Source: Acidimicrobiia bacterium
GTDB taxonomy: Bacteria > Actinomycetota > Acidimicrobiia > Spongiisociales > UBA11373
Assembly (NCBI GenBank): GCA_040882645.1
Contig: JBBEAX010000055.1
Location: forward strand, 3,589-67,588
DNA: 64,000 bases
Direction: 5' to 3'
Shown: positions 1 to 52,354 of the stretch, in pieces
Layout of the letters: each line of letters begins with the position of its first letter
Position numbering within the stretch: position 1 is the first letter of the stretch
Translations under genes and position numbers: made by a program
The notes under the pieces: model-generated
What the model was told of the DNA's origin: nothing
Database searches by the model: none
Seen by the model: only the letters and a program-made list of their open reading frames with translations

Positions 1-84
1 ACGCGATACGCGATACGAAGGAAGCGGTGAACGAGTGCGATACGGGTTTGGCGATTCTTGCGGAAGGCGGAAGGCGGGGCGGCC
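1..84. repeat. Heptad-array element, truncated by the window edge: R-class array ACGCGAT x2.4 (1-17) and G-class-like array GGCGGAA x2 (56-84)
   Basis: Direct reading gives acgcgatacgcgatacg, then cttgcggaaggcggaaggcggggcggcc. The reverse complement CCGCCTTCCGCCTTCCGCAAGA matches the array at 13653-13692. It lies just past the 3' end of the 90-626 gene. Confidence 0.7.
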
Positions 85-89
85 TCTGG

Positions 90-626
90 CTATGGACTAT
101 CGACTCCCAAGAAGGGTTGATCCATTTCGTCGAAGGCTCCCTGAAGGGCTTCCAGGGCGTAGCGGTATGGGCCGGATGGCTGATAGCGCTCGCACGGTTC
201 GGCGACGCAGGGCTCCATGCTGAGCAGGTCGACCAGGGTTCCGTCGGCGGCGAAGAAGGCGATGTCGAGCGGCATCAGGGTGTCCTTCATCCAGAAGAAC
301 GAGGTGGTGTCCTCCTCCCACTTGAACAGCATCCCGTCGAGGTCGCCGAGGTCCGTGACCCCCATCAAGCCCTGCGCCCGTTCGTGCGGCTCGGAGGCCA
401 CGGCCACCTCCCACTCCTCCCCCGACACCTCGATCGTCTGGTGCTCGAAAACGTCGAGGGGGTGGGCGACCGCGGCCGTGGTCTCGGTGGTGGGCCCGAT
501 CACCGGCGGAACGGTGGTCGCCCTGGTAGCCGGATCCGGCTCGGTGAGGAGGACTCCCACCGCGATCACCAGCACGACCACCAGGCCGACACCGACTGCG
601 GGCAGGGCCCAGGGACGGGTGGTCAC
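90..626 (-). CDS. DUF192 domain protein with an N-terminal TM anchor
   Basis: Last 178 codons of the 90..1841 minus ORF. TM helix ALPAVGVGLVVVLVIAVGVLL is followed by a DUF192-like core (GLMGVTDLGDLDGMLF, MKDTLMPLDIAFF). GTG at 624-626 overlaps the panB stop as GTGA. The rest of the 583-aa ORF is Arg/Gly/Pro junk antisense or out of frame to panB. Confidence 0.75.
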   Translation of the reverse strand: MTTRPWALPAVGVGLVVVLVIAVGVLLTEPDPATRATTVPPVIGPTTETTAAVAHPLDVFEHQTIEVSGEEWEVAVASEPHERAQGLMGVTDLGDLDGMLFKWEEDTTSFFWMKDTLMPLDIAFFAADGTLVDLLSMEPCVAEPCERYQPSGPYRYALEALQGAFDEMDQPFLGVDSP

Positions 627-1474
627 CCGTCGCTCAACAGCGCTCGGGCAACCTCTTCGGGCATGTGATAGGACTCTTCGTCCGAGGGGAAGTCGCCCTT
701 CTGGACATCCTCGAAGAAGCGGGTGACGGCATCGATGGCTATCGCCCCCAGGTCGGCGTACTGGCGCACGAACTTGGGCACCCGTCCTTCGCCCAGCCCG
801 AGCAGGTCGTGGAAGACCAGTACCTGCCCGTCGACCTTCGGTCCGGCGCCGATCCCGATGGTCGGGGCGCCGACCTCCTTGGTGATCAACTCGGCGAGCA
901 CGTCGGGCACCCCCTCGAGGACTATCGAAAACACCCCGGCGGTGTCGAGCGCCCGGGCGTCGGCGATGAGCTCGCGTGCCGCCTCGATCTGCTTGCCCTG
1001 CACCCGATAGCCACCCATCGCATGCACCGATTGGGGGGTGAGGCCCAGGTGGCCCATCACCGGGATCTCCGCGTCGAGGACCGCCTCGATCATCGGCAGC
1101 CGCTTGCGGCCCCCTTCGAGCTTGACGGCTTCGGCCCCGCCTTGGGCGACCATGCGCCCGGCATTGCGGACCGTCTCCTCCACCGACACGTGATACGACA
1201 TCCACGGCATGTCGCCCACCACGAGGGCGGCCGGCTTGGTGCCCGCAACCGCCCGGGTGTGATGAACCATGTCGTCCATGGTCACGGTCAAGGTTGTCTC
1301 GCGGCCCAGCACCACGTTGGCGAGTGAGTCGCCCACCAGGATGATGTCGGCGCCGGCGGCGTCGGCGATGCGCGCCGAAGGGGCATCGTAAGCGGTGACC
1401 ATCCGCAGCTTGGGGCCGCCCTTGGCGGCGCGCACCTTGGGGGCAGTCTGCTTCTCGCGGGTCTCGTCGCGCAT
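623..1474 (-). CDS. panB: 3-methyl-2-oxobutanoate hydroxymethyltransferase
   Basis: 283-aa ORF with typical PanB motifs (MVTAYDAPSARIADAAGADIILVGDSLANVVLG, KLEGG, GHLGLTPQS, GIGAG). Confidence 0.95.
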   Translation of the reverse strand: MRDETREKQTAPKVRAAKGGPKLRMVTAYDAPSARIADAAGADIILVGDSLANVVLGRETTLTVTMDDMVHHTRAVAGTKPAALVVGDMPWMSYHVSVEETVRNAGRMVAQGGAEAVKLEGGRKRLPMIEAVLDAEIPVMGHLGLTPQSVHAMGGYRVQGKQIEAARELIADARALDTAGVFSIVLEGVPDVLAELITKEVGAPTIGIGAGPKVDGQVLVFHDLLGLGEGRVPKFVRQYADLGAIAIDAVTRFFEDVQKGDFPSDEESYHMPEEVARALLSDG

Positions 1475-2112: not shown

Positions 2113-2134
2113 GCGGCCGGCAAAGCCGGCCGCC
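2112..2134 (+). terminator. Perfect 10-bp GC hairpin (GGCGGCCGGC aaa GCCGGCCGCC) starting at the last base of the stop codon
   Basis: Read directly. There is no U-tract. Similar GGCCGGCC-type hairpins accompany heptad arrays at 9801-9835, 13740-13754, 18012-18030 and 46188-46195. Confidence 0.5.
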
Positions 2135-2256
2135 GCGATTCGCGATTCGCAATTCGCAATTCGAAGGAAGGGCCGGGTCGCTTCGCTCCCGGCCGATTGA
2201 ACGGGCTCTGGAGGTGCTCGGGCGGGGGTTCGCCCTTCGCCATTCGCCTTTCGCTC
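2135..2256. repeat. Heptad-array element: R-class array (GCGATTC x2, GCAATTC x2; 2135-2165), 7-bp hairpin with TCGCTTCGCT loop (2171-2194), TTCGCCN array x4 (2229-2256)
   Basis: Direct reading. The GAAGGAAG junction after the R array is shared with locus 1-25. TTCGCCTTTCGC is shared with 13723-13740. Confidence 0.75.
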
Positions 2257-4006: not shown

Positions 4007-4027
4007 GCCTCGCTGCGCTCGGCCCGG

Positions 4028-4095
4028 CTGCCCGCTACCCGCTTCCCGCTGCCGGCAAGATCGGATTCGGAGCGGGTAGCGGGTAGCGGGTAGCG
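4028..4095. repeat. G-class heptad hairpin: CCGCTAC-type array (4028-4053) and inverted GCGGGTA x3 (4071-4095)
   Basis: CCCGCTACCCGCTTCCCGCT against the reverse complement of the right arm CCCGCTACCCGCTACCCGCT gives 1 mismatch in 20. It lies between the convergent ino1 and nfo. Confidence 0.8.
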
Positions 4096-5496: not shown

Positions 5497-5530
5497 GGCT
5501 GGAGGGTAGATCAGCAAGCCCCACTTTCGG

Positions 5531-5681
5531 TACGCAATGAGCAATGCGCAATGAGCGACCTGCGGTCCGCGTCCGTGGAAGTTTGACGCGTCGCGCATCG
5601 CGCATTGCGCATCGCGCATTGCGAATCGCCCCCCGGCGCAGACCACTCTTGTCTTGCTACTTGACTCTTGACTCTTGCTAC
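5531..5681. repeat. Composite heptad element: R array (5531-5557), inverted R' array (5588-5629), K' array CTCTTGA-type (5646-5681)
   Basis: The R/R' arms pair with 3 mismatches in 25. The R'+K' part is the inverted counterpart of 9685-9782. The uppS stop TAG (5678-5680) lies inside the K' array. Confidence 0.8.
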
Positions 5682-6490
5682 TTTCCGAACCTGCGCTCTC
5701 GCCGGGTGTAGTCGCGTAGGGCGCGTAAGAAGTCGACCCGGCGGAAGCCGGGCCAGTGGACGTCGACGAACGAGTATTCGGCATACGCCGCCTGCCACAG
5801 GAGGAAGCCCGACAGGCGGGACTCCCCGCTCGTGCGGATGACCAGATCCGGGTCGGGCAGATCGGCGGCGTACAAGTGGGCGGCGATCGCCCCTGCATCG
5901 ATCGAATCGGCTAGTTGCTCGGCCTCCACCCCGTCGGCGGCCAGCTTCGCCACCAGCTCGCGGACCGCGTCCACGATCTCCTGGCGGCCGGTGTAGGCGA
6001 GCGCCAGGTTGAGCCGCCGTCGCCCGCGCGGCGAAGACGCCGACAACTGCCGCGCCGCCTGCTGGAGCCGGTCGGGCAGCAGGTGGATGCTGCCGATGAC
6101 ACCCACCTGCAGGTCCTCGCCTCCGATTGCCGGCAGCCGCTCGAACAGGTCGACCAGGACGTCGTAATACGGCTCTAGTTCGGCCGGAGGGCGTTCGAGG
6201 TTCTCCTGCGACAGCAGCCAGCAGGTCATCACCGGAACGTCGAGGTCACCGCACCACCCGAGGAACTCGGCGAGCTTGTCCATCCCCGCCCGGTACGACG
6301 AGGCGTAGTCGCGAAGGCCGGCGATCCGGGCGAAACGCCGGTGGCCGTCGAGGATCACCCCGACGTGTCGAGGGAGCTTCTCCCGGTCCAGCGATCGAAG
6401 GAGGCGCTCCTCGTAGAGCCGATACAGCGGCCGGGTCAGCACGGTCCTACGCGGCGACGGCCCGGAACGCCTGTCAGCAGGTTCCGTCAT
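5678..6490 (-). CDS. uppS: Isoprenyl transferase (cis-prenyl diphosphate synthase, UppS family)
   Basis: 270 aa from ATG 6490 with HVGVILDGHRRFA and IRTSGESRLSGFLLWQAAYAEY. Which UppS paralogue this is cannot be decided from sequence alone. Confidence 0.85.
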   Translation of the reverse strand: MTEPADRRSGPSPRRTVLTRPLYRLYEERLLRSLDREKLPRHVGVILDGHRRFARIAGLRDYASSYRAGMDKLAEFLGWCGDLDVPVMTCWLLSQENLERPPAELEPYYDVLVDLFERLPAIGGEDLQVGVIGSIHLLPDRLQQAARQLSASSPRGRRRLNLALAYTGRQEIVDAVRELVAKLAADGVEAEQLADSIDAGAIAAHLYAADLPDPDLVIRTSGESRLSGFLLWQAAYAEYSFVDVHWPGFRRVDFLRALRDYTRRERRFGK

Positions 6491-6509
6491 GATCCTGGGG
6501 CGAGTCGCT

Positions 6510-8102
6510 TCATGGAAGCCCACATACATCGATGCCGTCGAGGAACCCAGCCTTGAAGGACTCGAACCGCCTGAAAGCACTCGCGTAGCCCTCCGTGCCC
6601 GCGGGGGCCGAAGTCTGCAGGAAGCCGCTGATGCCCTCGTCGAGATCGCCCGCCGTGAGGATGATCCCGGTCGGGTTGTCCTCGAAGGTGATGGCCGCGG
6701 TCCACACCCCGGTGAGGCAGTCGCGCTGCAGGGTGGCGGGAACTCCCTCGGTCTCGAGGCCGGCCTTGTGCTGCACCGCCTCGTGCCACTGGGTGGCCAG
6801 CACCAACCCGAGGGCAAAGTCGCCGATCTCCGTGTAGAGGCCGGGGAACAGCTGTTCTTCGTCCCAGGCGACGAAGTCCTCCGGCGGGCAGTAGAACACG
6901 TTGCCCTCGTAGAACGCGGTGTCGGAGGTGAATCCACCGCACGATGGAAACTCACCCGACGAGGGGAAGTAGGGCACGGTGCGGTCGACCGGATCCCACG
7001 CCTCGCCGAAAACCTCCGGGTAGACGAGCGCCCAGAACGCCTCGAGCGAGCCGATCAGCTGCGAGGCGGCCTCGGCATAGGGAAGGTCGACGCTCCCATC
7101 CTCTCCGACAAAGGGGACATGGAAGAACGGGGGCGGGGTGGCCTCGAATGTGGCGCAGTGCTCGGTTCCCAGTGAGTAGCCATCGAAGAAAGCACTCAGG
7201 CGCGCGAACGAGTTGCCATGGGCGTTGGCGCCGGTAGGGGCGCTACCGAGGGAGTCGCCGATGAGCACGAAGCCCGCCATCCCTTCCTCGAGGTCGCCAG
7301 CGTCCAACTCGAGGATGTCGCTTTCAAGGCGATCGACTCGCCCGGTCCACGCCCCGGCGAGACAATCGGCCTGCAATTCGGACACGATCGTCGGAACCGC
7401 GTCATCCAATCCGAAGCGAGCCTGGATCGCATGACCCCACTCATGGGCGAGGACGAGGGCGACCGTGAAGTCGCCGTACTCCGCGTAGAGCGGCGCCATC
7501 AGGCCCTCCTGGTCCCACTGCACGCTGTCGTTGAGCTGGCAATAGAACGCGTTGACCTCGAACTGGTCGCGTGACAGGGGACCGCCACAGATCGGCACGT
7601 CGCCTTCGGAGACGAAATAGGGACCGAACGCCGTGACCGGCTCGTAATCCACCCCGAACACCTCCGGCAGCTCGGCACTCCAGAACTGCTCGAGGTCGGT
7701 GATGGTGAAATCGACGAGCGTCTCGATGTCGGTGATCGGTTGGAACCCGCCTGCGGTGGTAGTGGTGGTGTCGCCCGTACTGCGTTGGCAGATGTCCACG
7801 ATCTCGACCACGACGGGATGCGATTCGATGTCGCCCTCCGTCTCGAGGTCGAGGAAGTCCTGGAGCGACATCCGCTCCTGGAACTCGTCGATGGTGCAGC
7901 GGCAGAACGCCACAGTCCCATCGACCGAACACCCCTCGACATACGAATCCACGATCTGGGTCGGATACTCGAACGCGGCAGCGGTCGTCGAGGTGGTGCC
8001 GGCGCCCGTCGTCGTCGTGGTGGTGATGACCGACCCACCATCGTCGCCGCAGGCCGCCGCGACCAACCCCAGGGCGAGTATCAGTACCAGGCTCTTCTTC
8101 AC
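6510..8102 (-). CDS. Lipoprotein with two tandem YpfJ-like neutral zinc metallopeptidase domains
   Basis: GTG 8102 is preceded by GGAGG. The signal/lipobox is KKSLVLILALGLVAAAC, followed by a poly-Thr linker. Domain 1 carries HEWGH. Domain 2 is a clear internal duplicate (EVFG..PV..PYF..CGG..NAFYC..D) but reads ATQWHEAVQH at the same position. Confidence 0.8.
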   Translation of the reverse strand: MKKSLVLILALGLVAAACGDDGGSVITTTTTTGAGTTSTTAAAFEYPTQIVDSYVEGCSVDGTVAFCRCTIDEFQERMSLQDFLDLETEGDIESHPVVVEIVDICQRSTGDTTTTTAGGFQPITDIETLVDFTITDLEQFWSAELPEVFGVDYEPVTAFGPYFVSEGDVPICGGPLSRDQFEVNAFYCQLNDSVQWDQEGLMAPLYAEYGDFTVALVLAHEWGHAIQARFGLDDAVPTIVSELQADCLAGAWTGRVDRLESDILELDAGDLEEGMAGFVLIGDSLGSAPTGANAHGNSFARLSAFFDGYSLGTEHCATFEATPPPFFHVPFVGEDGSVDLPYAEAASQLIGSLEAFWALVYPEVFGEAWDPVDRTVPYFPSSGEFPSCGGFTSDTAFYEGNVFYCPPEDFVAWDEEQLFPGLYTEIGDFALGLVLATQWHEAVQHKAGLETEGVPATLQRDCLTGVWTAAITFEDNPTGIILTAGDLDEGISGFLQTSAPAGTEGYASAFRRFESFKAGFLDGIDVCGLP

Positions 8103-8452
8103 TTCCTCCACCCCTTCCACGGCCCCGGCCGGGGCGCGGTGTCCAGTGTCGTCTCGGCAGTCAACGGTTCGCCATGCAGGTCCCGAATTCGGCCCCACAT
8201 CCAGACGTCGAATGCCTCGGATGAGTCGGCCATGGCTCGTACGGCGGCGGCGGGATCACGACCCTCGGAGAAGATCACCGCAAGGTGGGTGTCGCCGTGA
8301 TCGACGACCGACACCACCTGGCGGGTGATGCCACGCCGCCGTTGCGACTGAGCCCATTCAATGCGGCGGGGTCCCATCAGCTCGGCATGGAAAGCATGCC
8401 ACTCGTCGAGCTTTCCCGCCGCGATGGGCCGGACGGTGATGGTCGCGGCCAC
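8099..8452 (-). CDS. Hypothetical small protein
   Basis: Start chosen at GTG 8452, 4 nt after GGAGGA; the track ORF begins at TTG 8503. The stop overlaps the lipoprotein GTG (GTGA). I recognise no family. Confidence 0.55.
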   Translation of the reverse strand: MAATITVRPIAAGKLDEWHAFHAELMGPRRIEWAQSQRRRGITRQVVSVVDHGDTHLAVIFSEGRDPAAAVRAMADSSEAFDVWMWGRIRDLHGEPLTAETTLDTAPRPGPWKGWRK

Positions 8453-8521
8453 TGATCCTCCAACTGGCTGTGACGCGGCACAGTAGCCAGTCCTCGGATT
8501 CAACTGGGAGCCACCACAGCC

Positions 8522-9631: not shown

Positions 9632-9684
9632 GGAAAGAGCATCGGCCCGATCTGTCGTGGTCTAAAGAGCGACCCGGGGCGGAA

Positions 9685-9835
9685 GTAGCAAGAGTCAAGA
9701 GTCAAGAGTCAAGAGAGGTCTGCTGGCGATGTGGACGCGATTCGCAATTACGCGATTCGCAATACGCGATACGCGATACGACAGAACGGACCGCTCGCAG
9801 CGGGGCCTGCGGCCGCCTTGGGCGGCCTGCAGGGC
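9685..9835. repeat. Composite heptad element: K array GTCAAGA x3 (9685-9718), R array (9735-9782), GC hairpin (9801-9835)
   Basis: Bases 9685-9706 are the exact reverse complement of 5660-5681 (22/22). GGTCTGC and GCGATTCGCAAT are also shared with the inverted left copy. It lies in the divergent GT4/SDR intergenic region. Confidence 0.85.
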
Positions 9836-13652: not shown

Positions 13653-13790
13653 GGCGGCCCCCCGCCCCCCGCCTCCCGCCTCCCGCAAGAGCCGCGCTGA
13701 CCCCTTCACTCGCGTAACCGCGGTTTCGCCTTTCGCAGCCCGGCCGCAGGCCGGACCTTCGCCCATCGCGTGCCGAGCGAAGCGAGGCAC
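13653..13790. repeat. G-class-like heptad array (CCCGCC[CT] x4-5 ending in GCAAGAG, 13653-13692), TTTCGCC x2 (13723-13740) and small hairpins (13740-13754, 13770-13790)
   Basis: Direct reading. The loop GAGCGAAGCGA is the reverse complement of the TCGCTTCGCTC motif seen at 2178-2187 and 17908-17920. Confidence 0.7.
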
Positions 13791-14509: not shown

Positions 14510-16372
14510 ATGGAACCCAAAGAACTCCTCGGCAGGATCAAGGCCGAGGTTGCAGCACCAGCAGAAGAGGTGACGTTCGCCCGGTACCTCGAGATGGTGC
14601 GGGACGACCCCCGACTCGCCCGACTATCGCACGCACTGATCGCCGACATGCTCGAGGCTTCCGGTGTGTCCACCGGGCCCGACGGCGAGGAGCGCTTCGA
14701 CCTTTTCGAGGGCGGGCTGTTCGGTCAGCAGTGGGTCATCCAGCAGGTGGTCGATTACTTCCGGGCGGCCGGATGCCGCCTCGATGTCCGCAAGCGGATC
14801 CTGCTTCTCGTCGGCCCTCCCGGGTCGGGCAAGTCGACCCTCATCAACACCATCAAGGAGGGTCTCGAGGCGTACACCAAAACCGACGACGGCCGGGTGT
14901 ACGCGGTCAAGGGCTCTCAGATGCACGAGGACCCGCTGCGGCTGATCCCCAATGAGCTCCGCGACGAGACCGGCGTCTACATCGAAGGGGACCTCAATCC
15001 CGAGGTGCGTTGGTTGGTGGAATACGTCTACCAGGGCGACATCACCAAGGTGCCGATCCAACGGATCCACTACAGCATCGCCCGCGGCACCGGCTTCGGC
15101 ACCTTTGTCGCCACCGACCCCCGCTCGGAGAACCTTGCCCGCCTCGTCGGTGAGGTGGAGCAGAGCCTCCTCGATCCCACCGACCCGGGATCGGTGCGGC
15201 GCGCTTACCGATTCGACGGCGAGCTGAACGCGGCCCACCGGGGGATGGCCGACCTGCTCGAAGTCTTCAAGATGGACGAACGCTTTCTGGCGGTGCTGCT
15301 GAGCCTCAGCCAGGAACAGATCATCAAGACGAGCGGTCCCGGGACCATGTACGCCGACGAGGCCTTGGTCGCCCAGAGCAACCTCGCCGAATATCAGGAG
15401 CTCGTCGACAACCCGCGGGCGGCCGCGATGCTCGACCGCCTCGTGGTGGTGAAGGTTCCGTTCGTGCTGTCGGTGCGCGACGAGATCCGCATCTACGAAA
15501 AGATGCTCTCGGGCGCCGACCTCGGCCGGCGCGACGTCTCGCCGCTCGCCCTCCACACCGCCGCCACCTTCGCAGTGCTGACCAGGCTGGAGCACCCGGG
15601 CGGAGGCATGCAGGGCCTGATCCGCAAGCTCCGGCTCTACGACGGCCGCTACGGGCCTCACGGCGGCTCGGAGGACGCCCGCAAGCTGCGGGACAAGGCG
15701 CCAAACGAGGGCATGACCGGACTGAGCCCCCGCTACGTGATCAATCGCCTGTCGCAGGTGGCCGGCAACACCAAGGGTTGCCTCGATGGCATCGCGGTGC
15801 TCGAAGCGCTCTGGGAGGGTCTCCCCCAGCGGGCCGGGTTCACCGAAGACGAACGCGAGCGTTGGAGCTCACTGCTCTCCGCCACTCAGGCCGAGTACGA
15901 CGAGATGGTGCAGTTGGAGATTCGCAAGGGGTCGGTGCTCGGGTTCAAGGACTCGGCCGAGAAGATGGCGAAGACGGTTCGGGAGGAGGTGGCAGCGTGG
16001 AAGTCCCAGGGCGACGCGGCCAACACCCCCACGCTGCGACGGTTGGAGCGGCTCATCGACGTCCCCCAGTACGGACGAGATCGATTCCGCAATGCGCTCT
16101 CGGCAGCGCTGGAGTTGAAGGGGCAGCGGGGTCGCCCGCTCCACACCCGCCATCCCTTGTTGGAGGATGCGATCCAGCGGGCACTGCTGCCGTCGTGGAG
16201 CGACGTAGCCAAGAAGCTCGACGACCAGGGCGACGGCATCGTCCAGGGCATCCAGGCTTCCGGCTGGCGCAAGGCCTGTGCCGAGCAACTGGTCGAGTAC
16301 GCCCACAAGTTCATCGGATCGAAGCGCGACCGGCGGGACGAGGGCGAGAAGAAGCCGACCTGGTACTCCTGA
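14510..16372 (+). CDS. prkA: PrkA family AAA+ serine protein kinase
   Basis: ATG 14510 follows AGGAG. Long collinear similarity to B. subtilis PrkA / E. coli YeaG (RLDVRKRILLLVGPPGSGKSTL, YAVKGSQMHEDPLRLIP, AYRFDGELNAAHRGMADLLEVFKMDERFL). Confidence 0.9.
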   Translation: MEPKELLGRIKAEVAAPAEEVTFARYLEMVRDDPRLARLSHALIADMLEASGVSTGPDGEERFDLFEGGLFGQQWVIQQVVDYFRAAGCRLDVRKRILLLVGPPGSGKSTLINTIKEGLEAYTKTDDGRVYAVKGSQMHEDPLRLIPNELRDETGVYIEGDLNPEVRWLVEYVYQGDITKVPIQRIHYSIARGTGFGTFVATDPRSENLARLVGEVEQSLLDPTDPGSVRRAYRFDGELNAAHRGMADLLEVFKMDERFLAVLLSLSQEQIIKTSGPGTMYADEALVAQSNLAEYQELVDNPRAAAMLDRLVVVKVPFVLSVRDEIRIYEKMLSGADLGRRDVSPLALHTAATFAVLTRLEHPGGGMQGLIRKLRLYDGRYGPHGGSEDARKLRDKAPNEGMTGLSPRYVINRLSQVAGNTKGCLDGIAVLEALWEGLPQRAGFTEDERERWSSLLSATQAEYDEMVQLEIRKGSVLGFKDSAEKMAKTVREEVAAWKSQGDAANTPTLRRLERLIDVPQYGRDRFRNALSAALELKGQRGRPLHTRHPLLEDAIQRALLPSWSDVAKKLDDQGDGIVQGIQASGWRKACAEQLVEYAHKFIGSKRDRRDEGEKKPTWYS

Positions 16373-16433
16373 ATCAAGAATCAAGAATCAAGAAGCGGGA
16401 CTGGCGTCATCTTGAATCTTGACTCTTGTATCC
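16371..16433. repeat. K-class heptad hairpin: (GAATCAA)x3 - 12-nt loop - TCTTGAA TCTTGAC TCTTG
   Basis: Arms 16375-16395 and 16408-16428 pair at 18 of 21 positions. It lies between the convergent prkA and cca, and both stop codons fall inside the element. Confidence 0.85.
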
Positions 16434-17834: not shown

Positions 17835-18030
17835 CCGCTGCCCGCTACCCGCTACCCGCTGCCAGCAAGAGCCTTTGACTCGCTTGGCCGCCGCACGGCC
17901 CCTCCGGCTCGCTTCGCTCGCCACCTCCCCCTACTGGGGAGGAAACGCGTGAGACAAACTTCTTGCGGGAGGCGGGTAGCGGGTAGCCGGTAGCGTCTCT
18001 TGCAGGCAGCGGGCCGGCCGGAGGCCGGCC
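17835..18030. repeat. Composite element: G array CCGCTAC x3 + GCAAGAG (17835-17873), 60-nt GC-rich element with CCTCCCC-ctact-GGGGAGG hairpin (17887-17948), inverted G' arrays (17961-18013), GGCCGGCC-gga-GGCCGGCC hairpin (18012-18030)
   Basis: Direct reading. It lies between the cca start and the pilT stop. The inner 60 nt recurs inverted at 53870-53937. Confidence 0.8.
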
Positions 18031-20981: not shown

Positions 20982-21045
20982 GGAATCAAGAATCAAGAAT
21001 CAAGACCGTGGCAGGTTCGAGTCTTGAATCTTGGCTCTTGATTCC
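20982..21045. repeat. K-class heptad hairpin: GGAATCAAGAATCAAGAATCAAGAC - 14-nt loop - GTCTTGAATCTTGGCTCTTGATTCC
   Basis: A 25-position stem with 22 Watson-Crick pairs, 1 G-U and 2 mismatches (paired by hand). It lies between the convergent GNAT and DegV genes. Confidence 0.9.
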
Positions 21046-21962: not shown

Positions 21963-22050
21963 GCAATTCGCAATTCGCAATACGCAATACGACGAACCCG
22001 GGCTCCAGCATTCGGCACGCTCGCTGCGCATTACTCATTGCGCATTGCGC
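21963..22050. repeat. R-class heptad hairpin: GCAATTC x2, GCAATAC x2 (21963-21994) and inverted CATTGCG-type array (22026-22050)
   Basis: Direct reading. The junction ATACGACGAA and loop CCGGGCTCC are shared with 40977-41078. It lies in the divergent degV / ECF-sigma region. Confidence 0.8.
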
Positions 22051-28537: not shown

Positions 28538-28555
28538 GGTGAAGAAGGTACCACT

Positions 28556-28584
28556 TTCGCTACCCGCTACCCGCTACCCGCTAC
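28556..28584. repeat. G-class heptad array (CGCTACC x4), left flank of the parS pair
   Basis: tcgctacccgctacccgctacccgctacc read directly, 19 nt upstream of the rsmG start codon. Confidence 0.8.
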
Positions 28585-28605
28585 CAAGGGATGGGAGCTG
28601 ATATT

Positions 28606-28621
28606 GGTTTCACATGAAACG
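28606..28621. other. parS-like site GGTTTCACATGAAACG (13/16 to TGTTTCACGTGAAACA)
   Basis: Compared by eye with the canonical ParB site. Mismatches fall at both end positions and at the central G>A. Confidence 0.6.
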
Positions 28622-28640
28622 ACTGCACGCGGGTGAGAAC

Positions 28641-28656
28641 CGTTCCACGTGAAACA
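28641..28656. other. parS site CGTTCCACGTGAAACA (15/16 to TGTTNCACGTGAAACA)
   Basis: Near-perfect match, 35 bp centre-to-centre from the first site, in the rsmG-jag intergenic region about 1.5 kb from parB. Confidence 0.85.
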
Positions 28657-28727
28657 TTGAAGGGGGCCGAACATGGGACACCACAAAGAATCATGGGATA
28701 TCACAGACCGGTCCCGCGTCATTTGCC

Positions 28728-28797
28728 GGGGGTAGCGAAGGGCGATCGCAGCAGGCAGCGATTGTCAGCGGGTAGCGACTGTCAGCGATTTCGCTAC
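28728..28797. repeat. Inverted G'-class region (GGGGTAGCG, GCGGGTAGCG) with an internal direct repeat GCGA[TC]TGTCAGCG x2, right flank of the parS pair
   Basis: Direct reading. It contains the GCAGGCAGCG motif shared with 18003-18012. The jag stop TAG (28794-28796) lies inside it. Confidence 0.7.
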
Positions 28798-30823: not shown

Positions 30824-30826
30824 CGC

Positions 30827-31129: not shown

Positions 31130-31161
31130 CGGGGCGTAGGGCGCCGCGGCGATGCTGCGAC

Positions 31162-34383: not shown

Positions 34384-34396
34384 ACGAGTCGATCGC

Positions 34397-35817: not shown

Positions 35818-35838
35818 CCTGGCCTTTTCCAATTCTGA

Positions 35839-37899
<2,061 letters not shown>

Positions 37900-37908
37900 G
37901 AGAGCCAG

Positions 37909-40973: not shown

Positions 40974-40976
40974 GGG

Positions 40977-41096
40977 CCGCGATACGCGATACGCGATTCG
41001 CGATACGACAGAAACGCCTGGATCAGCCGAGACGCGCCGGGCTCCGTCGAATTGCGAATTGCGAATTGCGAATCGCGGCTCGGGCGTCAGCCCGAG
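40977..41096. repeat. R-class heptad hairpin: CGCGATA/CGCGATT x4 (40977-41009) and inverted GAATTGC x3 (41047-41078), then a 7-bp hairpin (41079-41096)
   Basis: The arms align over 33-34 nt with 7 non-Watson-Crick positions. Several are G opposite T, so G-U pairs are possible in plus-strand RNA. It lies between convergent genes. The stop of the 41087 gene sits in the small hairpin loop. Confidence 0.8.
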
Positions 41097-41836
41097 TAGG
41101 CCGCCACTTCCAGTCCCACCCGCAACGCCGCGGCCAGGTACTGCTCGGGGTGATCTCCGGGGCGGTGAACCCCCGGGCCCACAGCGCCCTCCGCCACCAT
41201 GAGCGCGCCGGCGGCGAGGGCGATCCCATCGAGGTGGAGGCCCAGGTCGGCGACCCCGACGACCCGCGAGACGTGCTCGCCGTCGGCGTCACCGATCACG
41301 GTGGCGGATGCACCGGCCCACTCACCCTCGATCGGAACCCTGATGCGGATGCCGCCGTCGTCGCGCCCTGCCCCTTCACCCCAGCGGGCTCCGACCGGCT
41401 CAGGGAACGCCACCGGCTCGCCCCGTCGCAGCGGTTTGCCGGGCACCGTCCAGGCGGTGACGGTCCCGGTTACTTGGTCGGTACGGGCGATTTCATGGGC
41501 TGTCAGCGACTCGGCGATCCCCGAGAGGTTGGCCCCCACGAGGAGCGTCATCCCACTTTCGGTGAAGCGCCGGGTCACCTCCCGGTCGATCCGGTCGGCG
41601 GTGACGACGCAGGAGATGCCGTCATCGGCGGCGATACCGGCAAGACCGGAGGCGGCGACCGCGTCGTCGGTGGCTAGAGGGTTGTACCCGGTGAGCTCGC
41701 GGATCTTGATGGTCCGGCGTTCGGAGATTGGACCTTGATATCCGTACATCCCCAGGGCGACCAGGTCGCGCTCGGCGAGCAATATGAGCGCGGCGCGTCG
41801 TCCCGCCTCGCCGACCGCATGGATGGCGATCCTCAC
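41087..41836 (-). CDS. Hypothetical protein (possible Rossmann-like N-terminus)
   Basis: 249-aa ORF with coding-like composition and N-terminus MRIAIHAVGEAGRRAALILL. I recognise no family. Confidence 0.65.
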   Translation of the reverse strand: MRIAIHAVGEAGRRAALILLAERDLVALGMYGYQGPISERRTIKIRELTGYNPLATDDAVAASGLAGIAADDGISCVVTADRIDREVTRRFTESGMTLLVGANLSGIAESLTAHEIARTDQVTGTVTAWTVPGKPLRRGEPVAFPEPVGARWGEGAGRDDGGIRIRVPIEGEWAGASATVIGDADGEHVSRVVGVADLGLHLDGIALAAGALMVAEGAVGPGVHRPGDHPEQYLAAALRVGLEVAAYSG

Positions 41837-41969: not shown

Positions 41970-42059
41970 GGGCCGAGTGTAAGGGAGCCGCGCTGCAGCG
42001 TCGGAAGCGGAGTCGCCGGTTGGAAGGTGGCGGAGTTTCGTCATGTGGGAGACTGCCCC

Positions 42060-43133: not shown

Positions 43134-43212
43134 CCCGGCTCTGACGGCATCCCGGCTCGCGTGACGGTCGCCGCTCGCCGCGCTGCGACCGAGCGCGTCG
43201 ATTCGTCCGGAT

Positions 43213-43240
43213 GCGGTTGCTCATTGCTCATTGCGGTTGC
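43213..43240. repeat. R'-class-like heptad array: GCGGTTGC-TCATTGC TCATTGC-GGTTGC
   Basis: Direct reading. TCATTGCG units match those at 22031-22046 and the reverse complement of 5531-5557. Confidence 0.55.
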
Positions 43241-43279
43241 CCCGACCCCGGTCCCGGCCCTACCCTCACCCCACCACGC

Positions 43280-43460
43280 GAGTGGTGACCTGACGGACAG
43301 CGAAGTCCGGTTTGAATCCGGCACTGTCCCGCAACCGTGATGCCCCTTTTGGGGACGAGTCGGGACGCCTGACGTCAGGTCGGATTTGGACGCCTTCGGA
43401 GGAAGGGTGGCCAGCCGTCGGGCTTCCACACCTCCTCCTCGAGACTCGAGGAGGTTTTTT
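43280..43460 (+). promoter_or_regulatory. Cobalamin (B12) riboswitch with a terminator / SD-sequestering expression platform
   Basis: The core GAAGUCCGGUUUGAAUCCGGCACUGUCCCGCAACCGUGA (43302-43340) matches the conserved cobalamin aptamer core from memory. The B12-box-like GAGUCGGGACGCCUGACG is at 43358-43375. P1 candidate is ACCUGACG (43288-43295) with CGUCAGGU (43373-43380). Terminator CCTCCTCG-agact-CGAGGAGG plus T6 is at 43434-43460. Its 3' arm contains the GGAGG SD for ATG 43462. Confidence 0.8.
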
Positions 43461-45404: not shown

Positions 45405-46171
45405 GCCGGGTGACTGCCACCGGCGTTTCGGTGGCGTACGGGGGCCGCACCGCGGTCGACGGCGTCGACCTCTCGGTGGCGGCGGGTGAGTGGGTCGCGT
45501 TGATCGGGCCCAACGGTGCCGGTAAGACCTCGCTGCTGCGCGCCATCGCCGGGACCATCCCCCACACCGGTGAGGTGATGATCGATGGCGTGGCGGCGGC
45601 TTCGCTGCCCCGGCGAAGGGCTGCCCGGTTGGTGGCGATGGTTCCCCAGCAGCCGGTGCTGCCTGACGGGATGACGGTGCTCGATTACGTGCTCCTCGGC
45701 CGGACTCCCCATCTGGGTTACCTGGCCGCCGAGAGCTCCACCGATGTCGCCATCGCCCGTGAGTCGATGGCGCGTCTCGACGCCGCCGACCTGGGCGGCC
45801 GCCGGCTGGGAGAGCTCTCGGGTGGGGAGCACCAGCGGGTGGTGCTGGCACGGGCGCTGGCACAGCAGTCCGCGGTGCTGCTTCTCGACGAGCCCACCGC
45901 CGCCCTCGATGTCGGCCACGGTCAGCAGGTGCTCGACCTGGTCGACGAACTGCGCCGGGAGCGAGGGATGAGCGTGATCGCCGCGGTGCACGACCTGACC
46001 CTCGCCGCCCAGTATGCCGATCGCCTCGCCCTCATGGACGGGGGCCGCATCGTCTCCGAAGGGAGCCCGCGGGCGGTGCTCACCGAAGACGCAATCGCCC
46101 GCTTCTCAGGCGCCCGAGTGTCGATCCTCACCGGCCCCGGCGGCGAAGTGGTAGTGGTGCCGAGGAGGTAG
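45401..46171 (+). CDS. ABC transporter ATP-binding protein (FepC/BtuD-type)
   Basis: ATG 45401 overlaps the permease stop (ATGA). Walker A GPNGAGKTSLL, signature LSGGEHQRV, Walker B LLLDEP. Confidence 0.9.
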   Translation: MSRVTATGVSVAYGGRTAVDGVDLSVAAGEWVALIGPNGAGKTSLLRAIAGTIPHTGEVMIDGVAAASLPRRRAARLVAMVPQQPVLPDGMTVLDYVLLGRTPHLGYLAAESSTDVAIARESMARLDAADLGGRRLGELSGGEHQRVVLARALAQQSAVLLLDEPTAALDVGHGQQVLDLVDELRRERGMSVIAAVHDLTLAAQYADRLALMDGGRIVSEGSPRAVLTEDAIARFSGARVSILTGPGGEVVVVPRR

Positions 46172-46260
46172 CAGGTGGCAGGTTGCAGGCCGGCCATAGA
46201 CGAGCGGCGACCAGGGACGGGGTTCTTCGAATTGCGTATCGCGAATTGCGTATCGCGAAC
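46171..46260. repeat. Heptad arrays: GCAGGTG GCAGGTT GCAGGCC (46171-46191), GGCCGGCC palindrome, and an R'-class 14-mer CGAATTGCGTATCG x2 perfect tandem (46228-46255)
   Basis: Direct reading. It lies between the convergent ATPase and VIT genes and starts at the last base of the ATPase TAG. Confidence 0.8.
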
Positions 46261-47787: not shown

Positions 47788-48690
47788 ATGCGTCGGCTCC
47801 TTGCGATCCTGATCGCCCTGGCGGTACTCGTGCCCACTGCCGCATCTGCGGGAGAGGGGCCCGGTTCGTGGCCGGCCGAAGGCGGCCCACCGATCGTGCC
47901 CAATCCGCTCGCCGAGTTGAACCGTCTCGTCGAGGACTACATCGACGAACTGCAGGAGGAGCCCGACTTCGGCAGTCCAGGCTGGCTGACCCGCCGGATG
48001 GGGCTCATCGCCGGCGGCGACCTCTTCATCGGGTCGATCCGTGCCTCCGCGATCCTGTTCGTCGACAGCACGGTTCCCGAGCCATTGCGCTCGGTGATCA
48101 ACTCGCTGCCGGGGGACACCCCGATCTTCGAGGTGCTGCAAGCGGTCGACGCCGCGAGGGCCGATCCGGTGAGCGCCTGGCTGGGGCAGGAGATCGGAAT
48201 CGAACTCGTGGCGCTCCGCGGGTCGCTCGAGCGTCTTCGCGAGCTGCTCGATGGAGCGGGCCCCGAGCGGGTGTGCCCGGTGCTGGGGCCGGTGGAGTTC
48301 ACGAACGATTGGGGTGACCAGCGACCCGGAGTACGCACCCACAAGGGCACCGACCTCCATGCACCCGTCCGTACCCCGGTGCGTGCCATCGAGGATGGGG
48401 TGGTGGTCCAGGCGAACTGGCACAACGCCGGCGGGCGGCAGATCTACATCCGCGCCGACTCGACCGGCGACGTCTACTACTACGCCCATCTCGACGACTG
48501 GGAGGAGTGGATCTGGACGGGTACCCGGGTCGCGGCGGGCGACGTGATCGGGCTGCTCGGGTCATCAGGGAACGCCGACTCGGCGCATCTCCATTTCGGC
48601 TGGATACCGGGTTCCGGCTGGATCGACCTCGAGAATCTGCAGAACCCGTACCCACTGCTGCTCGAGATCTGTCCTGACCCGGCCGGGTAG
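47788..48690 (+). CDS. Secreted M23 family metallopeptidase
   Basis: ATG 47788 with signal peptide MRRLLAILIALAVLVPTAASA. M23 motifs HKGTDL and SSGNADSAHLHFG. Confidence 0.85.
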   Translation: MRRLLAILIALAVLVPTAASAGEGPGSWPAEGGPPIVPNPLAELNRLVEDYIDELQEEPDFGSPGWLTRRMGLIAGGDLFIGSIRASAILFVDSTVPEPLRSVINSLPGDTPIFEVLQAVDAARADPVSAWLGQEIGIELVALRGSLERLRELLDGAGPERVCPVLGPVEFTNDWGDQRPGVRTHKGTDLHAPVRTPVRAIEDGVVVQANWHNAGGRQIYIRADSTGDVYYYAHLDDWEEWIWTGTRVAAGDVIGLLGSSGNADSAHLHFGWIPGSGWIDLENLQNPYPLLLEICPDPAG

Positions 48691-48695
48691 GGAGG

Positions 48696-49175
48696 GTGGA
48701 GCGGAATCCCCGTCTGCGCCAAGACCTGCCATCCTCCGGTGGTATGACAAGGGCTCCGGCGAGTGGGCTGCTCAGCGGACCGAATCTCCCCTACTCCCTC
48801 ACGACACTCGTCGCACTCGTGGTGCTGGTGGCGTTCGTCCTCATGGCCGATCCGTTCGGTAGCGGGGTCGTCTCAACGGGCTTCGTCCCCGGCGATCCGG
48901 TGGCGGGCGAGACCACCTTCGCCAACCGCTGCAGCGTCTGCCACGGTCCCGGCGGCGAAGGCATCATCGGGCTCGGCAAACCCCTCACCACTTCGGAGTT
49001 CGCCGCGGGGCTCACCGACGAGGAGCTGCTGGCGTTCCTGATCGAAGGGCGCGCCTCGGACGACCCGGAGAACACCACCGGGATCGTCATGCCGGGCCGG
49101 GCCGGCGTTCCGCCGCTGAGCGACGAGGAGTTGGTCGACGTGGTCGCCTATCTCCGGACCCTGAGCGCCGGTTAG
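48696..49175 (+). CDS. Membrane-anchored class I c-type cytochrome
   Basis: Haem motif CSVCH with a distal Met region (GIVMPGRAG) and an N-terminal TM anchor. ATG 48744 is an alternative start. Confidence 0.8.
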   Translation: MERNPRLRQDLPSSGGMTRAPASGLLSGPNLPYSLTTLVALVVLVAFVLMADPFGSGVVSTGFVPGDPVAGETTFANRCSVCHGPGGEGIIGLGKPLTTSEFAAGLTDEELLAFLIEGRASDDPENTTGIVMPGRAGVPPLSDEELVDVVAYLRTLSAG

Positions 49176-50003: not shown

Positions 50004-50077
50004 CCGACCACGCTACCGGGAACCGGCGGGGCCACCGTTACCGTCACATTGGGCGACACCCACGAAAAGGATCGCAG

Positions 50078-52270
50078 ATGCGCAGGTACCTCGCCCTCGC
50101 GGCGGTAATGGTGATGGCGATGACGGCGTGTACCCGGGCGGAGTCGACCAGCCCGATCCGATCGCTGGGAGCCTCTTTCGATCCCCGGTCGATCACCTTC
50201 AGCGCGGTCCTTACCCCGTTCGATGCGTGCGACGCCGTGCTGGTCCACTTCAAGGCCGAGGCTCTCGAGCGCGTCGGCCCCTACGGGCTCGATGGCGGCC
50301 CTCGCTGGTACTTCTTCGAGGGAGGCGCCAGGGCACAGGAGGACACTGCCGGCCCTCCCGGTGACGGCGCGGTGACCACCATGCCCGCCTCCCTTGCCGG
50401 CAGAGGCGAGGATGGCGGTTTTTCGGGGACCAATGTCCAGGTGTCCGGGGTTGACGAGCCCGACATCATCAAGACCGACGGCGAGCGAATCCTGTCGATC
50501 GTCGACGGAAAGCTCCGCTACGTCGATGTGACCGGTGACGAACCGGTCCTGCTGGGAGAACTCCAACTCGAGACGGGCTGGAATCACCGGTTCTTCGTGG
50601 ACGGTGACCGTGCTTTCGTCTTCTCGCAGGGCGACCTCTATGCGATCCCGATGTTTGCCGCCGACGCCGCCCGCATCGCCCCGCCCTATGGCGCGACCGT
50701 GAGCGTGGTTCAGGAGATAGACCTGTCCGACCCCGACGACATGCAGGTCGTCCGTACCCTGCGAGTCGATGGTTCCTACCTGAGCGCTCGCTCGATCGAC
50801 GGCGTGGTGCGAATGGTGGTGTCGTCCTATCCGTCGGATCTCCCCTTCGTGTATCCATCCAATGAGTCGGCCGAGGACATCGCTCTCGCCGCCAACCGTC
50901 AGATCATTGAAACGTCGACCCTGGAGACCTGGGTCCCCTCGTACACCTTGTACGACGCCGATGGCGACGAGATCGACTCGGGGCTGGTGGTGGCGTGTGA
51001 TCGGATGCATCGCCCCGCCGAGTTCGCCGGGTTCGACACCTTGTCCGTGACGACGCTCGATCTCAGCGGCTCGCTCGGCGCCGGCAACGGCACCGGTGTG
51101 ATCGCTCGCGGCGAGACGGTTTACGCGTCTCACACGAGCCTCTACGTGGCCACCAATGTGTGGATCCCGGAGGACGTCTCCGACACCACCGATTTCCAGG
51201 AGTTCTCGGAGCGGTACGAGACGGCGGTGCACAAATTCGACATCGCCGGCAACGGACCGGCCACCTATCGCGCCAGCGGATCGATCGACGGACACTTGCT
51301 CAATCAGTTCTCACTGGACGAGTTCGACGGTCACCTGCGGGTCGCGGTCACCGAGGGCGCTCCCTGGTCGTTCGAGGAGGACTCGGAGTCCAAGATTGTC
51401 GTCCTCACCGAGCGCGACGGGCTTCTCGTCGAAATCGGATCAGTCGGAGACATGGGCAAGGGGGAAAGGATCTACTCGGTCCGCTTCCTCGGGGAGACGG
51501 CGTATGTGGTGACGTTCCGCCAGGTCGACCCGCTCTATGTGGTCGATCTCAGGAACCCGGAGAACCCGGTTGTCAGCGGCGAGCTCAAGATCCCCGGCTA
51601 CTCCTCATACCTCCACCCTCTGGGCAACGGGATGCTGCTCGGGGTGGGCCAGGAGGCCGATAGCCAGGGCCGTACGACGGGAGCGAAGGCCACCCTGTTC
51701 GATGTCTCCGATCCGTCCGATCCTCGAGAGATCTCATCGTGGACCATCGCCGACGCGTACAGCGACGTCGAGTGGGAGCACCTGGCCTTCCTCTACTGGG
51801 CGCCGGCGGACATTGTGGTCCTGCCGATTCAGTCCTGGATGACGCAGTTCATGGGGGCGGTGGTCCTCAAGACCGACGATGGGCTGCGTGAGTATGGACG
51901 TATCACCCATCAGCGCGAAGACCGCCCGGGCGATGGATCGGACTGTGAGGTTCTCGACTCCGTCAAGGAAGCCGGACTCGTTATTCAGCTCTGCGACGAG
52001 GGCGACGATGGCGGGTACGGCGGGTACTACTGCGAGTCCGTGCCGGCGGATGAGGCCGCCGCACTCGCTCGGGACTGGGGCGTCGAAGTCTCCGACGACG
52101 AACTCGACGCCGCCGACCGGGTCGAGGTTTGCTGGCCGAACTACGAGCTCGGCGATCAGCAGATCATGCGGTCCCTGGTGATCGGAGACATATTGTGGAC
52201 ACTGTCCTGGCACGGCCTCCAGGCCAACGCCCTCGACGGCCTCGAGGTGCTCCACAAGGTGGGGTTCTAA
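50078..52270 (+). CDS. Secreted lipoprotein with a C-terminal beta-propeller domain (COG4880-like)
   Basis: Lipobox VMAMTAC. GVDEPDIIKTDGERI, YSVRFLGETAYVVTFRQVDPLYVVDL and SSYLHPLG are typical of the Beta_propel family as I recall it. Confidence 0.8.
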   Translation: MRRYLALAAVMVMAMTACTRAESTSPIRSLGASFDPRSITFSAVLTPFDACDAVLVHFKAEALERVGPYGLDGGPRWYFFEGGARAQEDTAGPPGDGAVTTMPASLAGRGEDGGFSGTNVQVSGVDEPDIIKTDGERILSIVDGKLRYVDVTGDEPVLLGELQLETGWNHRFFVDGDRAFVFSQGDLYAIPMFAADAARIAPPYGATVSVVQEIDLSDPDDMQVVRTLRVDGSYLSARSIDGVVRMVVSSYPSDLPFVYPSNESAEDIALAANRQIIETSTLETWVPSYTLYDADGDEIDSGLVVACDRMHRPAEFAGFDTLSVTTLDLSGSLGAGNGTGVIARGETVYASHTSLYVATNVWIPEDVSDTTDFQEFSERYETAVHKFDIAGNGPATYRASGSIDGHLLNQFSLDEFDGHLRVAVTEGAPWSFEEDSESKIVVLTERDGLLVEIGSVGDMGKGERIYSVRFLGETAYVVTFRQVDPLYVVDLRNPENPVVSGELKIPGYSSYLHPLGNGMLLGVGQEADSQGRTTGAKATLFDVSDPSDPREISSWTIADAYSDVEWEHLAFLYWAPADIVVLPIQSWMTQFMGAVVLKTDDGLREYGRITHQREDRPGDGSDCEVLDSVKEAGLVIQLCDEGDDGGYGGYYCESVPADEAAALARDWGVEVSDDELDAADRVEVCWPNYELGDQQIMRSLVIGDILWTLSWHGLQANALDGLEVLHKVGF

Positions 52271-52354
52271 AGAGACCCAAGAATCAAGAGTCAAGAATCG
52301 AGACCAGCCGGTGTCGCCGATGGTCATCTTGGTTCTTGGCTCTTGATTCTCTTT
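52271..52354. repeat. K-class heptad hairpin: CAAGAAT CAAGAGT CAAGAAT (52271-52305) and inverted CTTGGTT CTTGGCT CTTGATT (52322-52354)
   Basis: Direct reading. The outer AAAGAGA/TCTCTTT ends also pair. It lies between the beta-propeller gene stop and the MFS start. Confidence 0.8.

Follow-up and report, generated by a model that had tools for sequence, protein, structure and literature searches.

The window analyzed here, a 64,000-nucleotide stretch of DNA from an Acidimicrobiia bacterium (assembly GCA_040882645.1, contig JBBEAX010000055.1, positions 3,589 to 67,588), carries in its intergenic gaps a series of heptamer elements, each made of a 7-nt unit repeated in a short tandem array, which usually faces an inverted complementary array 12-150 nt away. 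It also contains a chromosomal replication-origin region spanning parB, parA, rsmG (gidB), jag, yidC, yidD, rnpA, rpmH, gap, dnaA, dnaN, recF, dciA, gyrB, and gyrA (26265-40344), the housekeeping genes (dnaA, gyrB, gyrA, parB, and others) having been identified by Pfam matches. Homologs of PrkA and GyrA came from Acidimicrobiia and Actinomycetota metagenome-assembled genomes, which places the window in Acidimicrobiia, whereas no record matched its GyrA exactly. A scan for perfect periodicity at periods 2-15, with a minimum of 10 matches beyond one unit and with Markov-2 simulations of the window as the null, returned 18 runs at period 7 where approximately 0.1 per period was expected; the other periods yielded zero or one run each, apart from period 14 with three. 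All 18 period-7 runs fell in non-coding DNA, which, as defined by a codon-usage gene map, made up only about 12% of the window (7.6-8.0 kb). An earlier reading made from the sequence alone (hereafter, the sequence-only reading) had proposed fifteen intergenic loci with a 7-nt period, and Tandem Repeats Finder (TRF) recovered period-7 or period-14 arrays at every one of them. The estimated total of about 1.7 kb was likewise borne out against the 7.6-8.0 kb of non-coding DNA, with 715 nt in the arrays proper. The arrays were neither confined to the window nor equally frequent in coding sequence, as they also occurred in relatives and were absent from coding sequence; the core of the sequence-only reading, that the elements are intergenic, form hairpins, and keep a 7-nt period independent of unit sequence, was upheld.

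At least five unrelated unit sequences coexist in this one genome. The main unit families were R (CGCRATW), G (CCCGNNN/CCGCTAC), and K (CAAGANT), accompanied by TTCGCCN and others. Several arrays were organized in 14-nt super-units of two alternating heptamer variants (e.g., ACGCGATTCGCAAT), as observed at 5593-5629, 9735-9780, and 46228-46259 in the window and at 15927-15996 in the relative contig L126, which implies slippage in two-unit steps. The possibility that the arrays were assembly artefacts was ruled out by their presence in independent assemblies and samples (contigs L121, L122, and L123; NCBI, ENA, JGI, and Logan sources). A role of the K units as GANTC methylation sites was also dropped, because the invariant part of the K unit is CAAGA, not GANTC, and no such site occurs in the other classes.

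Inverted partners had been proposed for nine loci, and 8-9 of the 15 were confirmed, comprising seven clear and two weaker pairs, whose fold z-scores were computed against dinucleotide shuffles. Three of the clear pairs were K hairpins. In the first (16371..16432; arms 16371-16394/16409-16432), GAATCAA x3.4 faced TCTTGAA/TCTTGAC x3.4, every 7 nt of the stem held one mismatch (z = -2.8, folded as 16365-16440), and the stop codon of PrkA (16370-16372) lay inside its first K unit. The second (20982..21045; 20982-21006/21021-21045) had 25-nt arms with 88% complementarity (z = -5.6) and was located between convergent genes, 12 nt past the stop codon at 20970. The third (52280..52350; 52280-52303/52327-52350) paired AAGAATC/AAGAGTC with TCTTGGT/TCTTGGC/TCTTGAT, was extended outward by AAAGAGA/TCTCTTT (z = -7.0), and started 2 nt past the stop codon at 52270. 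Two clear pairs belonged to the G family. The hairpin at 4027..4095 combined a CCGCTAC-type arm (4027-4050) with GCGGGTA x3.6 (4071-4095) at 92% complementarity (z = -6.05) and occupied a convergent gap whose two stop codons lay 21 and 23 nt away. That at 17835..18029 enclosed a 90-nt loop between arms (17836-17870/17961-17995) that were 86% complementary and whose inner ends bore GCAAGAG/TCTTGC; it was followed by a small GC hairpin (18008-18029) adjoining the stop codon of a T2SSE gene. An R-like hairpin (5528..5629) had a GCAATGA-type arm (5528-5558) and a CGCATTG/CGCATCG-type arm with a 14-nt super-unit (5598-5629; z = -4.06). An R hairpin (40976..41097) was built from 37-nt arms, CGCGATA x4.3 followed by CGACAGA (40976-41012) and TCCGTCG followed by GAATTGC x4.3 (41043-41079; z = -6.2); it began 3 nt past a stop codon between convergent genes and was followed by a small GC hairpin. 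Thus, five hairpins had z-scores between -4.1 and -7.0.

Two pairs were weaker. The R locus at 21963..22050 (21963/22025), in the divergent gap upstream of an extracytoplasmic function (ECF) sigma factor gene, consisted of GCAATTC/GCAATAC x4, the junction ATACGACGAA, and a degenerate partner, TGCGCAT x3.7, and its fold was weak (z only -0.9 for 21958-22055). In the jag/rsmG gap (28558..28787), CGCTACC x4.0 (28558-28585) was accompanied by a degenerate inverted partner (28749-28787), with the paired segment within 28572-28777 (28572/28749). The stems were imperfect, as the sequence-only reading had stated, and somewhat longer than its 20-25 bp, measuring 24-38 nt. Folds of the window hairpins left one position unpaired in every 7 nt, a pattern explained by separate homogenization of each arm. 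Small GC-rich hairpins were often found beside arrays (2113, 9797, 18008, 41080). Arm polarity by base composition was not significant over all arms (24 versus 15) and was consistent only within families. No Rfam covariance model matched at the arrays, even at E <= 1, and the sole above-gathering match in the window was an adenosylcobalamin (AdoCbl) riboswitch.

The remaining loci carried arrays in simpler or composite arrangements. At 1..77, an R array (ACGCGAT x2.4, 1-17) ran into the junction CGAAGGAAG (16-24), followed by GCGGAAG x2.6 (60-77), 13 nt from the 3' end of a minus-strand DUF192 gene (90-626); window position 1 itself falls inside the R array. At 2113..2254, the stop codon at 2112 was followed immediately by a GC-rich hairpin, then by an R array (CGCGATT/CGCAATT x4.3, 2134-2163) with the same junction, CGAAGGAAG, and a TTCGCCN x3.7 array (2229-2254); this locus had no inverted partner, and 2125-2260 showed no hairpin fold (z = -0.3 for the locus). 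A minus-strand K array of GAGTCAA units (5645..5686) abutted the stop codon of a uppS-like gene (5678-6442, minus strand). The composite locus in the divergent gap at 9681..9835 joined a K array (CAAGAGT x3.9, 9689-9715) to an R array (9735-9780) in which the super-unit ACGCGATTCGCAAT was repeated 3.2 times, ahead of the junction ATACGACAGAA and a GC-rich hairpin; the orthologous gap was only ~51 nt in the relatives L120 and L121. At 13657..13790, starting 36 nt past the stop codon at 13621, a G-like array (GCCCCCC/CCCGCCT x4.3, 13657-13686) was followed by GCAAGAG and scattered TTCGCC units. The convergent gap at 46166..46259 held two mutually non-complementary arrays. One, AGGTAGC x3.4, overlapped the stop codon at 46171; the other was the R-type CGAATTGCGTATCG x2.3 (46228-46259). 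A small TTGCTCA x2.6 array (43217..43234) completed the set just upstream of the AdoCbl riboswitch.

The arrays favored gaps between convergent genes, where they were about twice as frequent as elsewhere. They started 0-36 nt from stop codons, some overlapping them, and when the window and its relatives were pooled, they occupied 12/21 convergent, 18/67 tandem, and 7/29 divergent gaps (convergent versus the rest, 25/96, Fisher p = 0.009; convergent versus divergent, p = 0.02). Density per nucleotide followed the same order, with arrays covering 18% of convergent, 10% of tandem, and 4% of divergent gaps, and in the window alone only 2/11 divergent gaps contained them. Because the arrays abut stop codons and evolve fast, protein C-termini are rewritten along with them. 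The last ~15 codons of the convergent PolyA_pol/CCA-type open reading frame (ORF; 16388-17815, minus strand) are drawn from the K hairpin that also holds the PrkA stop codon, and the C-terminus of the DUF3566 protein differs between the window and L125.

Syntenic contigs of relatives (L120, L121-L123, L124, L125, L126/L127, and L128) were used to follow the elements through time. Across 267 kb of this lineage, there were 97 period-7 and 17 period-14 arrays versus 13 at period 6 and nine at period 8, the multiple-of-three periods representing the usual coding repeats; 5 of 47 TRF rows in relatives lay mostly inside called ORFs. An inverted partner (at least 12/14 positions matching within 160 nt) accompanied 50/114 lineage arrays, compared with 3/114 in a displaced control. 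The closest contig was L125 (JBBDMM010000006.1 of GCA_040878325.1), with GyrA 99% identical and DNA 92-94% identical to the window, and BLAST alignments between the two broke exactly at the array loci, where the arrays were absent from L125 or of another unit or period. Orthologous gaps in L120, L121, L124, L126, and L128 carried arrays of other units. In the gap after prkA, the GAATCAA hairpin of the window was replaced by a CAGCTGA/CAGCTCA hairpin in L120 and by CAATTCG x4 in L121. The gap between the PolyA_pol-type and T2SSE genes held the CCGCTAC hairpin with GCAAGAG/TCTTGC inner ends in both the window and L124, and GCAATGG/CCATTGC in L121. The jag/rsmG gap contained CGCTACC in the window, CCCGTCG x8.6 in L126, hexamer arrays in L125, and none in L128. 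The R hairpin at 40976 was absent in L125 and present in a diverged form in L126, likewise after the DUF3566 gene, and the gap of 46166..46259 held a CGTTGCC/GGGCAGA hairpin in L126 and almost nothing in L125. These comparisons showed that whole elements are gained, lost, or replaced within ~7% nucleotide divergence. Conservation of the hairpin architecture in relatives, on which the sequence-only reading had staked its claim, was therefore partial: hairpins were kept or replaced in L120, L124, and L126 and lost in the closest relative, L125.

The sequence-only reading had also held that shared junction motifs mark the elements as dispersed copies rather than products of independent slippage. 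The motifs occurred exactly at the positions it gave, and ATACGAC(A)GAA was found only at 9776, 21987, and 41003, in each case immediately following an R array; CCGGGCTCC and TCCCTC(T)CC each had 1-2 additional sites in the window, and GCAAGAG, with 14 occurrences, proved a weak marker. The window had just two occurrences of CGAAGGAAG, at 16 and 2162, again at the end of R arrays. Evidence for dispersal also came from the 22-mer CGCGATWCGCGATACGACAGAA, comprising R array and junction, which was found in 12 metagenome stretches (13 matches on 11 contigs); these came from JGI metagenomes that also held L126/L127, and two of the stretches represented one locus from two samples. All copies shared the layout [CGCRATW]n - CGACAGAA - loop - TTCTGTCG - [WATTGCG]n, from which it follows that the "junction" is the paired apex of the stem, and R polarity was nearly invariant, the CGCRATW arm being the 5' one. 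In the copies L133 and L138, an identical 24-nt loop was flanked by arms that differed in unit number. The R family therefore comprised five window loci in addition to the 12 metagenome stretches with the 22-mer and the stem apex in common. Within the K class, the copies at 9681-9709 (plus strand) and 5657-5686 (minus strand) were near-identical and inverted (GGAAGTAGCAAGAGTCAAGAGTCAAG). This K pair brackets the minus-strand four-gene operon at 5678-9631, and the 5' and 3' untranslated ends of its mRNA could pair via the GGAAGTAGCAAGAGTCAAGAGTCAAG copies if both are transcribed; relatives L120 and L121 lacked the upstream copy.

Slippage was directly evident as well. Contigs L121, L122, and L123 represent one species from three samples with 0.6% substitutions, and the true indels among them were single 7-nt units in three arrays (CCTGATG, CGCAATT, and GATGCCG) together with two 5-nt simple sequence repeat (SSR) units, showing that replication slippage lengthens and shortens the arrays one unit at a time. 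Dispersal was thus borne out for the R class and one K pair, while the exclusion of slippage was overstated in view of the 7-nt strain indels and the arm-wise homogenization. Many arrays consist of units lacking sibling copies, which indicates that both dispersal and local growth occur.

The sequence-only reading did not recognize the elements as a described family, and at the level of kind this was mistaken, given the reported heptanucleotide SSR excess (Mrázek 2007) and the inverted heptamer arrays after Xanthomonas ORFs (PMC4692102). As represented in later papers, the census of Mrázek, Guo, and Shah (2007) found heptanucleotides to be the most abundant class of long SSRs (LSSRs) in many genomes, including those of Actinobacteria, and proposed polymerase slippage as the driver (PMC4679880, PMC4692102). 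The window arrays resembled LSSRs in their period-7 dominance, their non-coding location, and the whole-unit length steps between strains (L121-L123). According to the same accounts, LSSRs share with our elements the dominance of period 7 among SSRs of 5-11 nt and an intergenic location, are phylogenetically scattered, and are attributed to slippage; as relayed there, that work is a statistical census and, unlike the present case, described neither pairing into hairpins nor family junctions, nor how arrays turn over at orthologous sites.

The closest likeness was to the GGGAATC arrays of Xanthomonas. Rehm et al. (2015) reported 186 and 183 such arrays in two Xanthomonas species (X. campestris and X. 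axonopodis), with 70-75 facing pairs able to form stem-loops. The arrays were 89-93% intergenic at a mean of 28 nt from the upstream ORF, were commoner in convergent (16%) than in divergent gaps (7-8%), and had lengths not conserved between species (PMC4692102). Both systems have 7-nt units, typically ~4 per array, arranged mostly as facing pairs at gene 3' ends with a convergent preference, and in both, array length and sequence differ among related species. The window loci likewise showed closely spaced facing arrays that lay nearer the end of the upstream ORF than the next ORF, and convergent gaps carried arrays more frequently than divergent ones. The difference lies in the sequence: Xanthomonas has one dominant G-rich unit, read as G-quadruplex (G4)-forming, whereas several unrelated units (AT-rich K, CG-rich R, C-rich G, and others), most of them unable to form G4, were found here. 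None of the window units, which were CGCRATW, CAAGANT, CCGCTAC, and others, corresponded to GGGAATC/GGGANTN with at least four G-tracts. Conserved junctions and loops outside the arrays, which indicate dispersed families, were a feature of the Acidimicrobiia (Actinomycetota) elements, unlike those of Xanthomonas. Tandem heptamers have also been known since 1990 in the short tandemly repeated repetitive (STRR) sequences of Calothrix and Nostoc, which are summarized as dispersed and intergenic with several unit types per genome (PMC4692102). In Beggiatoaceae, the dispersed intergenic TAACTGA heptamers lie a short way upstream of start codons and form direct repeats, with only one indirect repeat in 170 sets (PMC4679880). 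The hosts of STRR and TAACTGA repeats are low-GC and their units appear unrelated to the Acidimicrobiia ones, the common trait being many dispersed intergenic tandem heptamers. The window units are not known to be related to STRR units, and the host is not a heterocystous cyanobacterium.

A K-array scan of species-representative genomes extended the comparison, returning 119 loci in many phyla, mostly single heptamer SSRs in unrelated, mostly low-GC genomes. The 859 kb surrounding these loci contained 188 non-K period-7 runs versus 4-22 for each other period, a figure biased upwards because the loci had been picked for carrying a heptamer array. An inverted partner (at least 17/21 positions matching) accompanied 16 of the 29 K arrays from high-GC loci (Vicinamibacterales, Planctomycetota, Verrucomicrobiota, and Anaerolineae), compared with 7 of the 90 from low-GC loci; the hairpin layout is thus widespread in high-GC bacteria. 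We found in the literature no description of such elements in Actinomycetota or Acidimicrobiia and no established function for heptamer arrays anywhere, and a 2022 Nostoc preprint still treats the function as unknown. What is new is therefore the Acidimicrobiia lineage and the multi-family variant, while the unexplained bacterial heptamer repeat as a kind was already known (1990-2015).

The repetitive extragenic palindromes (REPs) and bacterial interspersed mosaic elements (BIMEs) of Proteobacteria offer a second point of reference. They are dispersed imperfect intergenic palindromes of family-specific sequence, found mostly after gene 3' ends or between convergent genes, with proposed roles in mRNA 3' protection and termination. 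The R family likewise consists of dispersed imperfect palindromes with a family consensus. Unlike our elements, REP stems are not built of tandem units and show no unit-step length change, and REPs are linked to REP-associated tyrosine transposases (RAYTs). With a probability of roughly 0.6, we regard the heptanucleotide SSR hairpin elements as palindromes of the REP kind whose stems are prone to slippage and which are either tolerated or of mild use at the 3' ends of genes. What persists is the period and the pairing, not the sequence, and the elements may serve a REP-like function at gene 3' ends. The inverted partner would be made and kept by intrastrand (quasipalindrome) template switching, by selection for pairing, or by both, and the preference for seven could stem from the slippage machinery, as Mrázek proposed, with no sequence-specific reader needed. 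By analogy, the elements would be largely tolerated passengers of gene 3' ends, where RNA hairpins can protect or delimit transcript ends. Several observations weigh against this interpretation. An inverted partner was missing at 6 of the 15 window loci, and no U-tract or T-run followed a hairpin at any window locus, so that, given stems of 24-38 nt, these are not canonical intrinsic terminators. Folding energies of both strands were compared in 17 co-directional gaps; the sense strand was stabler than the antisense in 10 and less stable in seven, which gives no G·U sign of selection at the RNA level. About a quarter of divergent (promoter) gaps carried arrays, the convergent-gap enrichment is also expected of a selfish or neutral element, and the absence of several elements from L125 argues against an essential role. 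Furthermore, none of the 30 window proteins scanned was a transposase or Y1 (RAYT-like) protein, so that no dispersal agent was found within this 64-kb part of the genome.

The data do not separate "mildly useful" from "merely tolerated," and the main rival is a reading without function, in which heptamer-biased slippage and hairpin-templated copying litter tolerant intergenic DNA with neutral or selfish by-products whose position reflects least harm. We consider this possible rather than probable. Rapid gain and loss, including absence from L125 at 93% identity, unit-step polymorphism between strains, the lack of strand asymmetry in folding, the heptamer bias in many unrelated phyla (188 versus 4-22 in 859 kb around preselected loci), and the status of convergent gaps as the least constrained class all favor it, but it sits poorly with the recurrence of arrays in the same gaps of relatives with both arms switching unit together (K versus CAGCTGA after prkA; R after the DUF3566 gene in the window and L126), with the arm polarity and junctions conserved within families, and with the tight placement at stop codons. 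That the elements might instead be non-autonomous transposons of miniature inverted-repeat (MITE) or REP type, moved by an enzyme encoded elsewhere with the arrays as part of the recognition hairpin, appears unlikely. The multi-copy R family with its junction, loop, and polarity conserved across contigs, the presence/absence polymorphism between close relatives, and the breaking of assemblies at arrays (L012, L039, L124, and window position 1) would suit such movement; however, no terminal inverted repeats extended beyond the arrays, many arrays had unique units without sibling copies, and no transposase or Y1 gene was among the window genes scanned. Comparison of the filled site (window 40976-41079) with its empty counterpart in L125 (13040-13165) revealed no target-site duplication and no clean boundary, only a possible remnant, and thus none of the terminal inverted repeats, duplications, and clean empty sites typical of MITEs.

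Protein binding to the double-stranded DNA provides a further alternative, in which the arrays would be operator- or centromere-like sites for heptad-reading proteins or a nucleoid-associated protein. The model here is the omega repressor, a ribbon-helix-helix protein that binds heptads in either direct or inverted orientation. The contiguous direct and inverted 7-bp units, the G arrays bracketing two parS sites (28606-28656), and the presence of some loci in divergent promoter gaps are compatible with this idea, and the authors of the Nostoc heptamer preprint (2022) likewise speculate on a binding protein. We nonetheless judge it very unlikely, as most loci lie at gene 3' ends rather than promoters and no candidate gene is linked to the arrays. 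Moreover, where an omega-type operator has one consensus in promoter regions, at least five unrelated units were found here, freely replaced at orthologous sites, with only 2/11 divergent gaps occupied, and one sequence-specific reader cannot explain units that are unrelated and interchangeable. Still more improbable is an action of the G-class arrays through a G4 or i-motif, as proposed for GGGAATC in Xanthomonas and GGGGAYT in Nostoc. On the G-rich strand, the G units do read as GGG plus 4 nt, the layout of published G4-forming heptamers, and at least four G3 tracts occur in 13657-13686 and in the CCCGTCG x8.6 array of L126, but most window G arrays (4071-4095, 17965-17995, 28558-28585) have only three GGG tracts, and K, R, and other classes share the architecture without being able to form G4. 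G4 as a common principle was therefore ruled out, applying at most to some G arrays.

Beyond the REP-like palindrome reading favored here, a bolder and rather doubtful extension would have the elements be self-extending, REP-like mobile palindromes, their 7-nt step reflecting an unrecognized cross-phylum DNA transaction, that is, an enzyme or repair route copying or adding DNA in seven-base increments at hairpins. If true, such a route would explain the same architecture in Acidimicrobiia, Vicinamibacterales, Planctomycetota, Verrucomicrobiota, Xanthomonas, and cyanobacteria. Whatever its cause, the lineage offers a useful natural data set: several unrelated unit families coexist in one genome under one hairpin layout, strains differ by single units, turnover is complete at ~93% nucleotide identity, and the conserved non-array parts of the R family attest to real dispersal. 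There are also practical effects, since the arrays appear to break metagenome assemblies and alter protein C-termini where they abut stop codons. Contig ends lay in heptamer arrays in L124 (6939-6968), L012, and L039, suggesting that such arrays break short-read metagenome assemblies.

Several further features were observed around the elements. A gap of ~450 nt near 31.3-31.7 kb is probably oriC, and no heptamer arrays were found in this putative oriC gap. In the jag/rsmG gap, two parS-like palindromes of the GTTTCACGTGAAAC type (28606-28621 and 28641-28656; two matches versus 0.1 expected) lay between the G-array arms and were kept in L125, L126, and L128 while the flanking arrays changed unit or period (hexamers in L125) or vanished. 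The AdoCbl (B12) riboswitch (43274-43419, plus strand; 56.5 bits) precedes a btuF-like ABC transporter operon, assigned as Peripla_BP_2, FecCD, and ABC_tran by synteny with L125, and an array occurred just 5' of the riboswitch in both the window (TTGCTCA) and L125 (ATGCGCG x2.9). In the stretches 41988-43254 and 47794-48698, the window had genes missing from L125, namely an M23 peptidase region and a molybdopterin oxidoreductase (42090-43133), and ~0.8 kb of L125 (19133-19976) was not in the window. In L121, positions 11877-12040 and 15899-16130 shared a ~150-nt element headed by a CGCAATT array and holding several single GACGAATTGC units 60-80 nt apart, which may represent an extended composite repeat with the R unit at its core.

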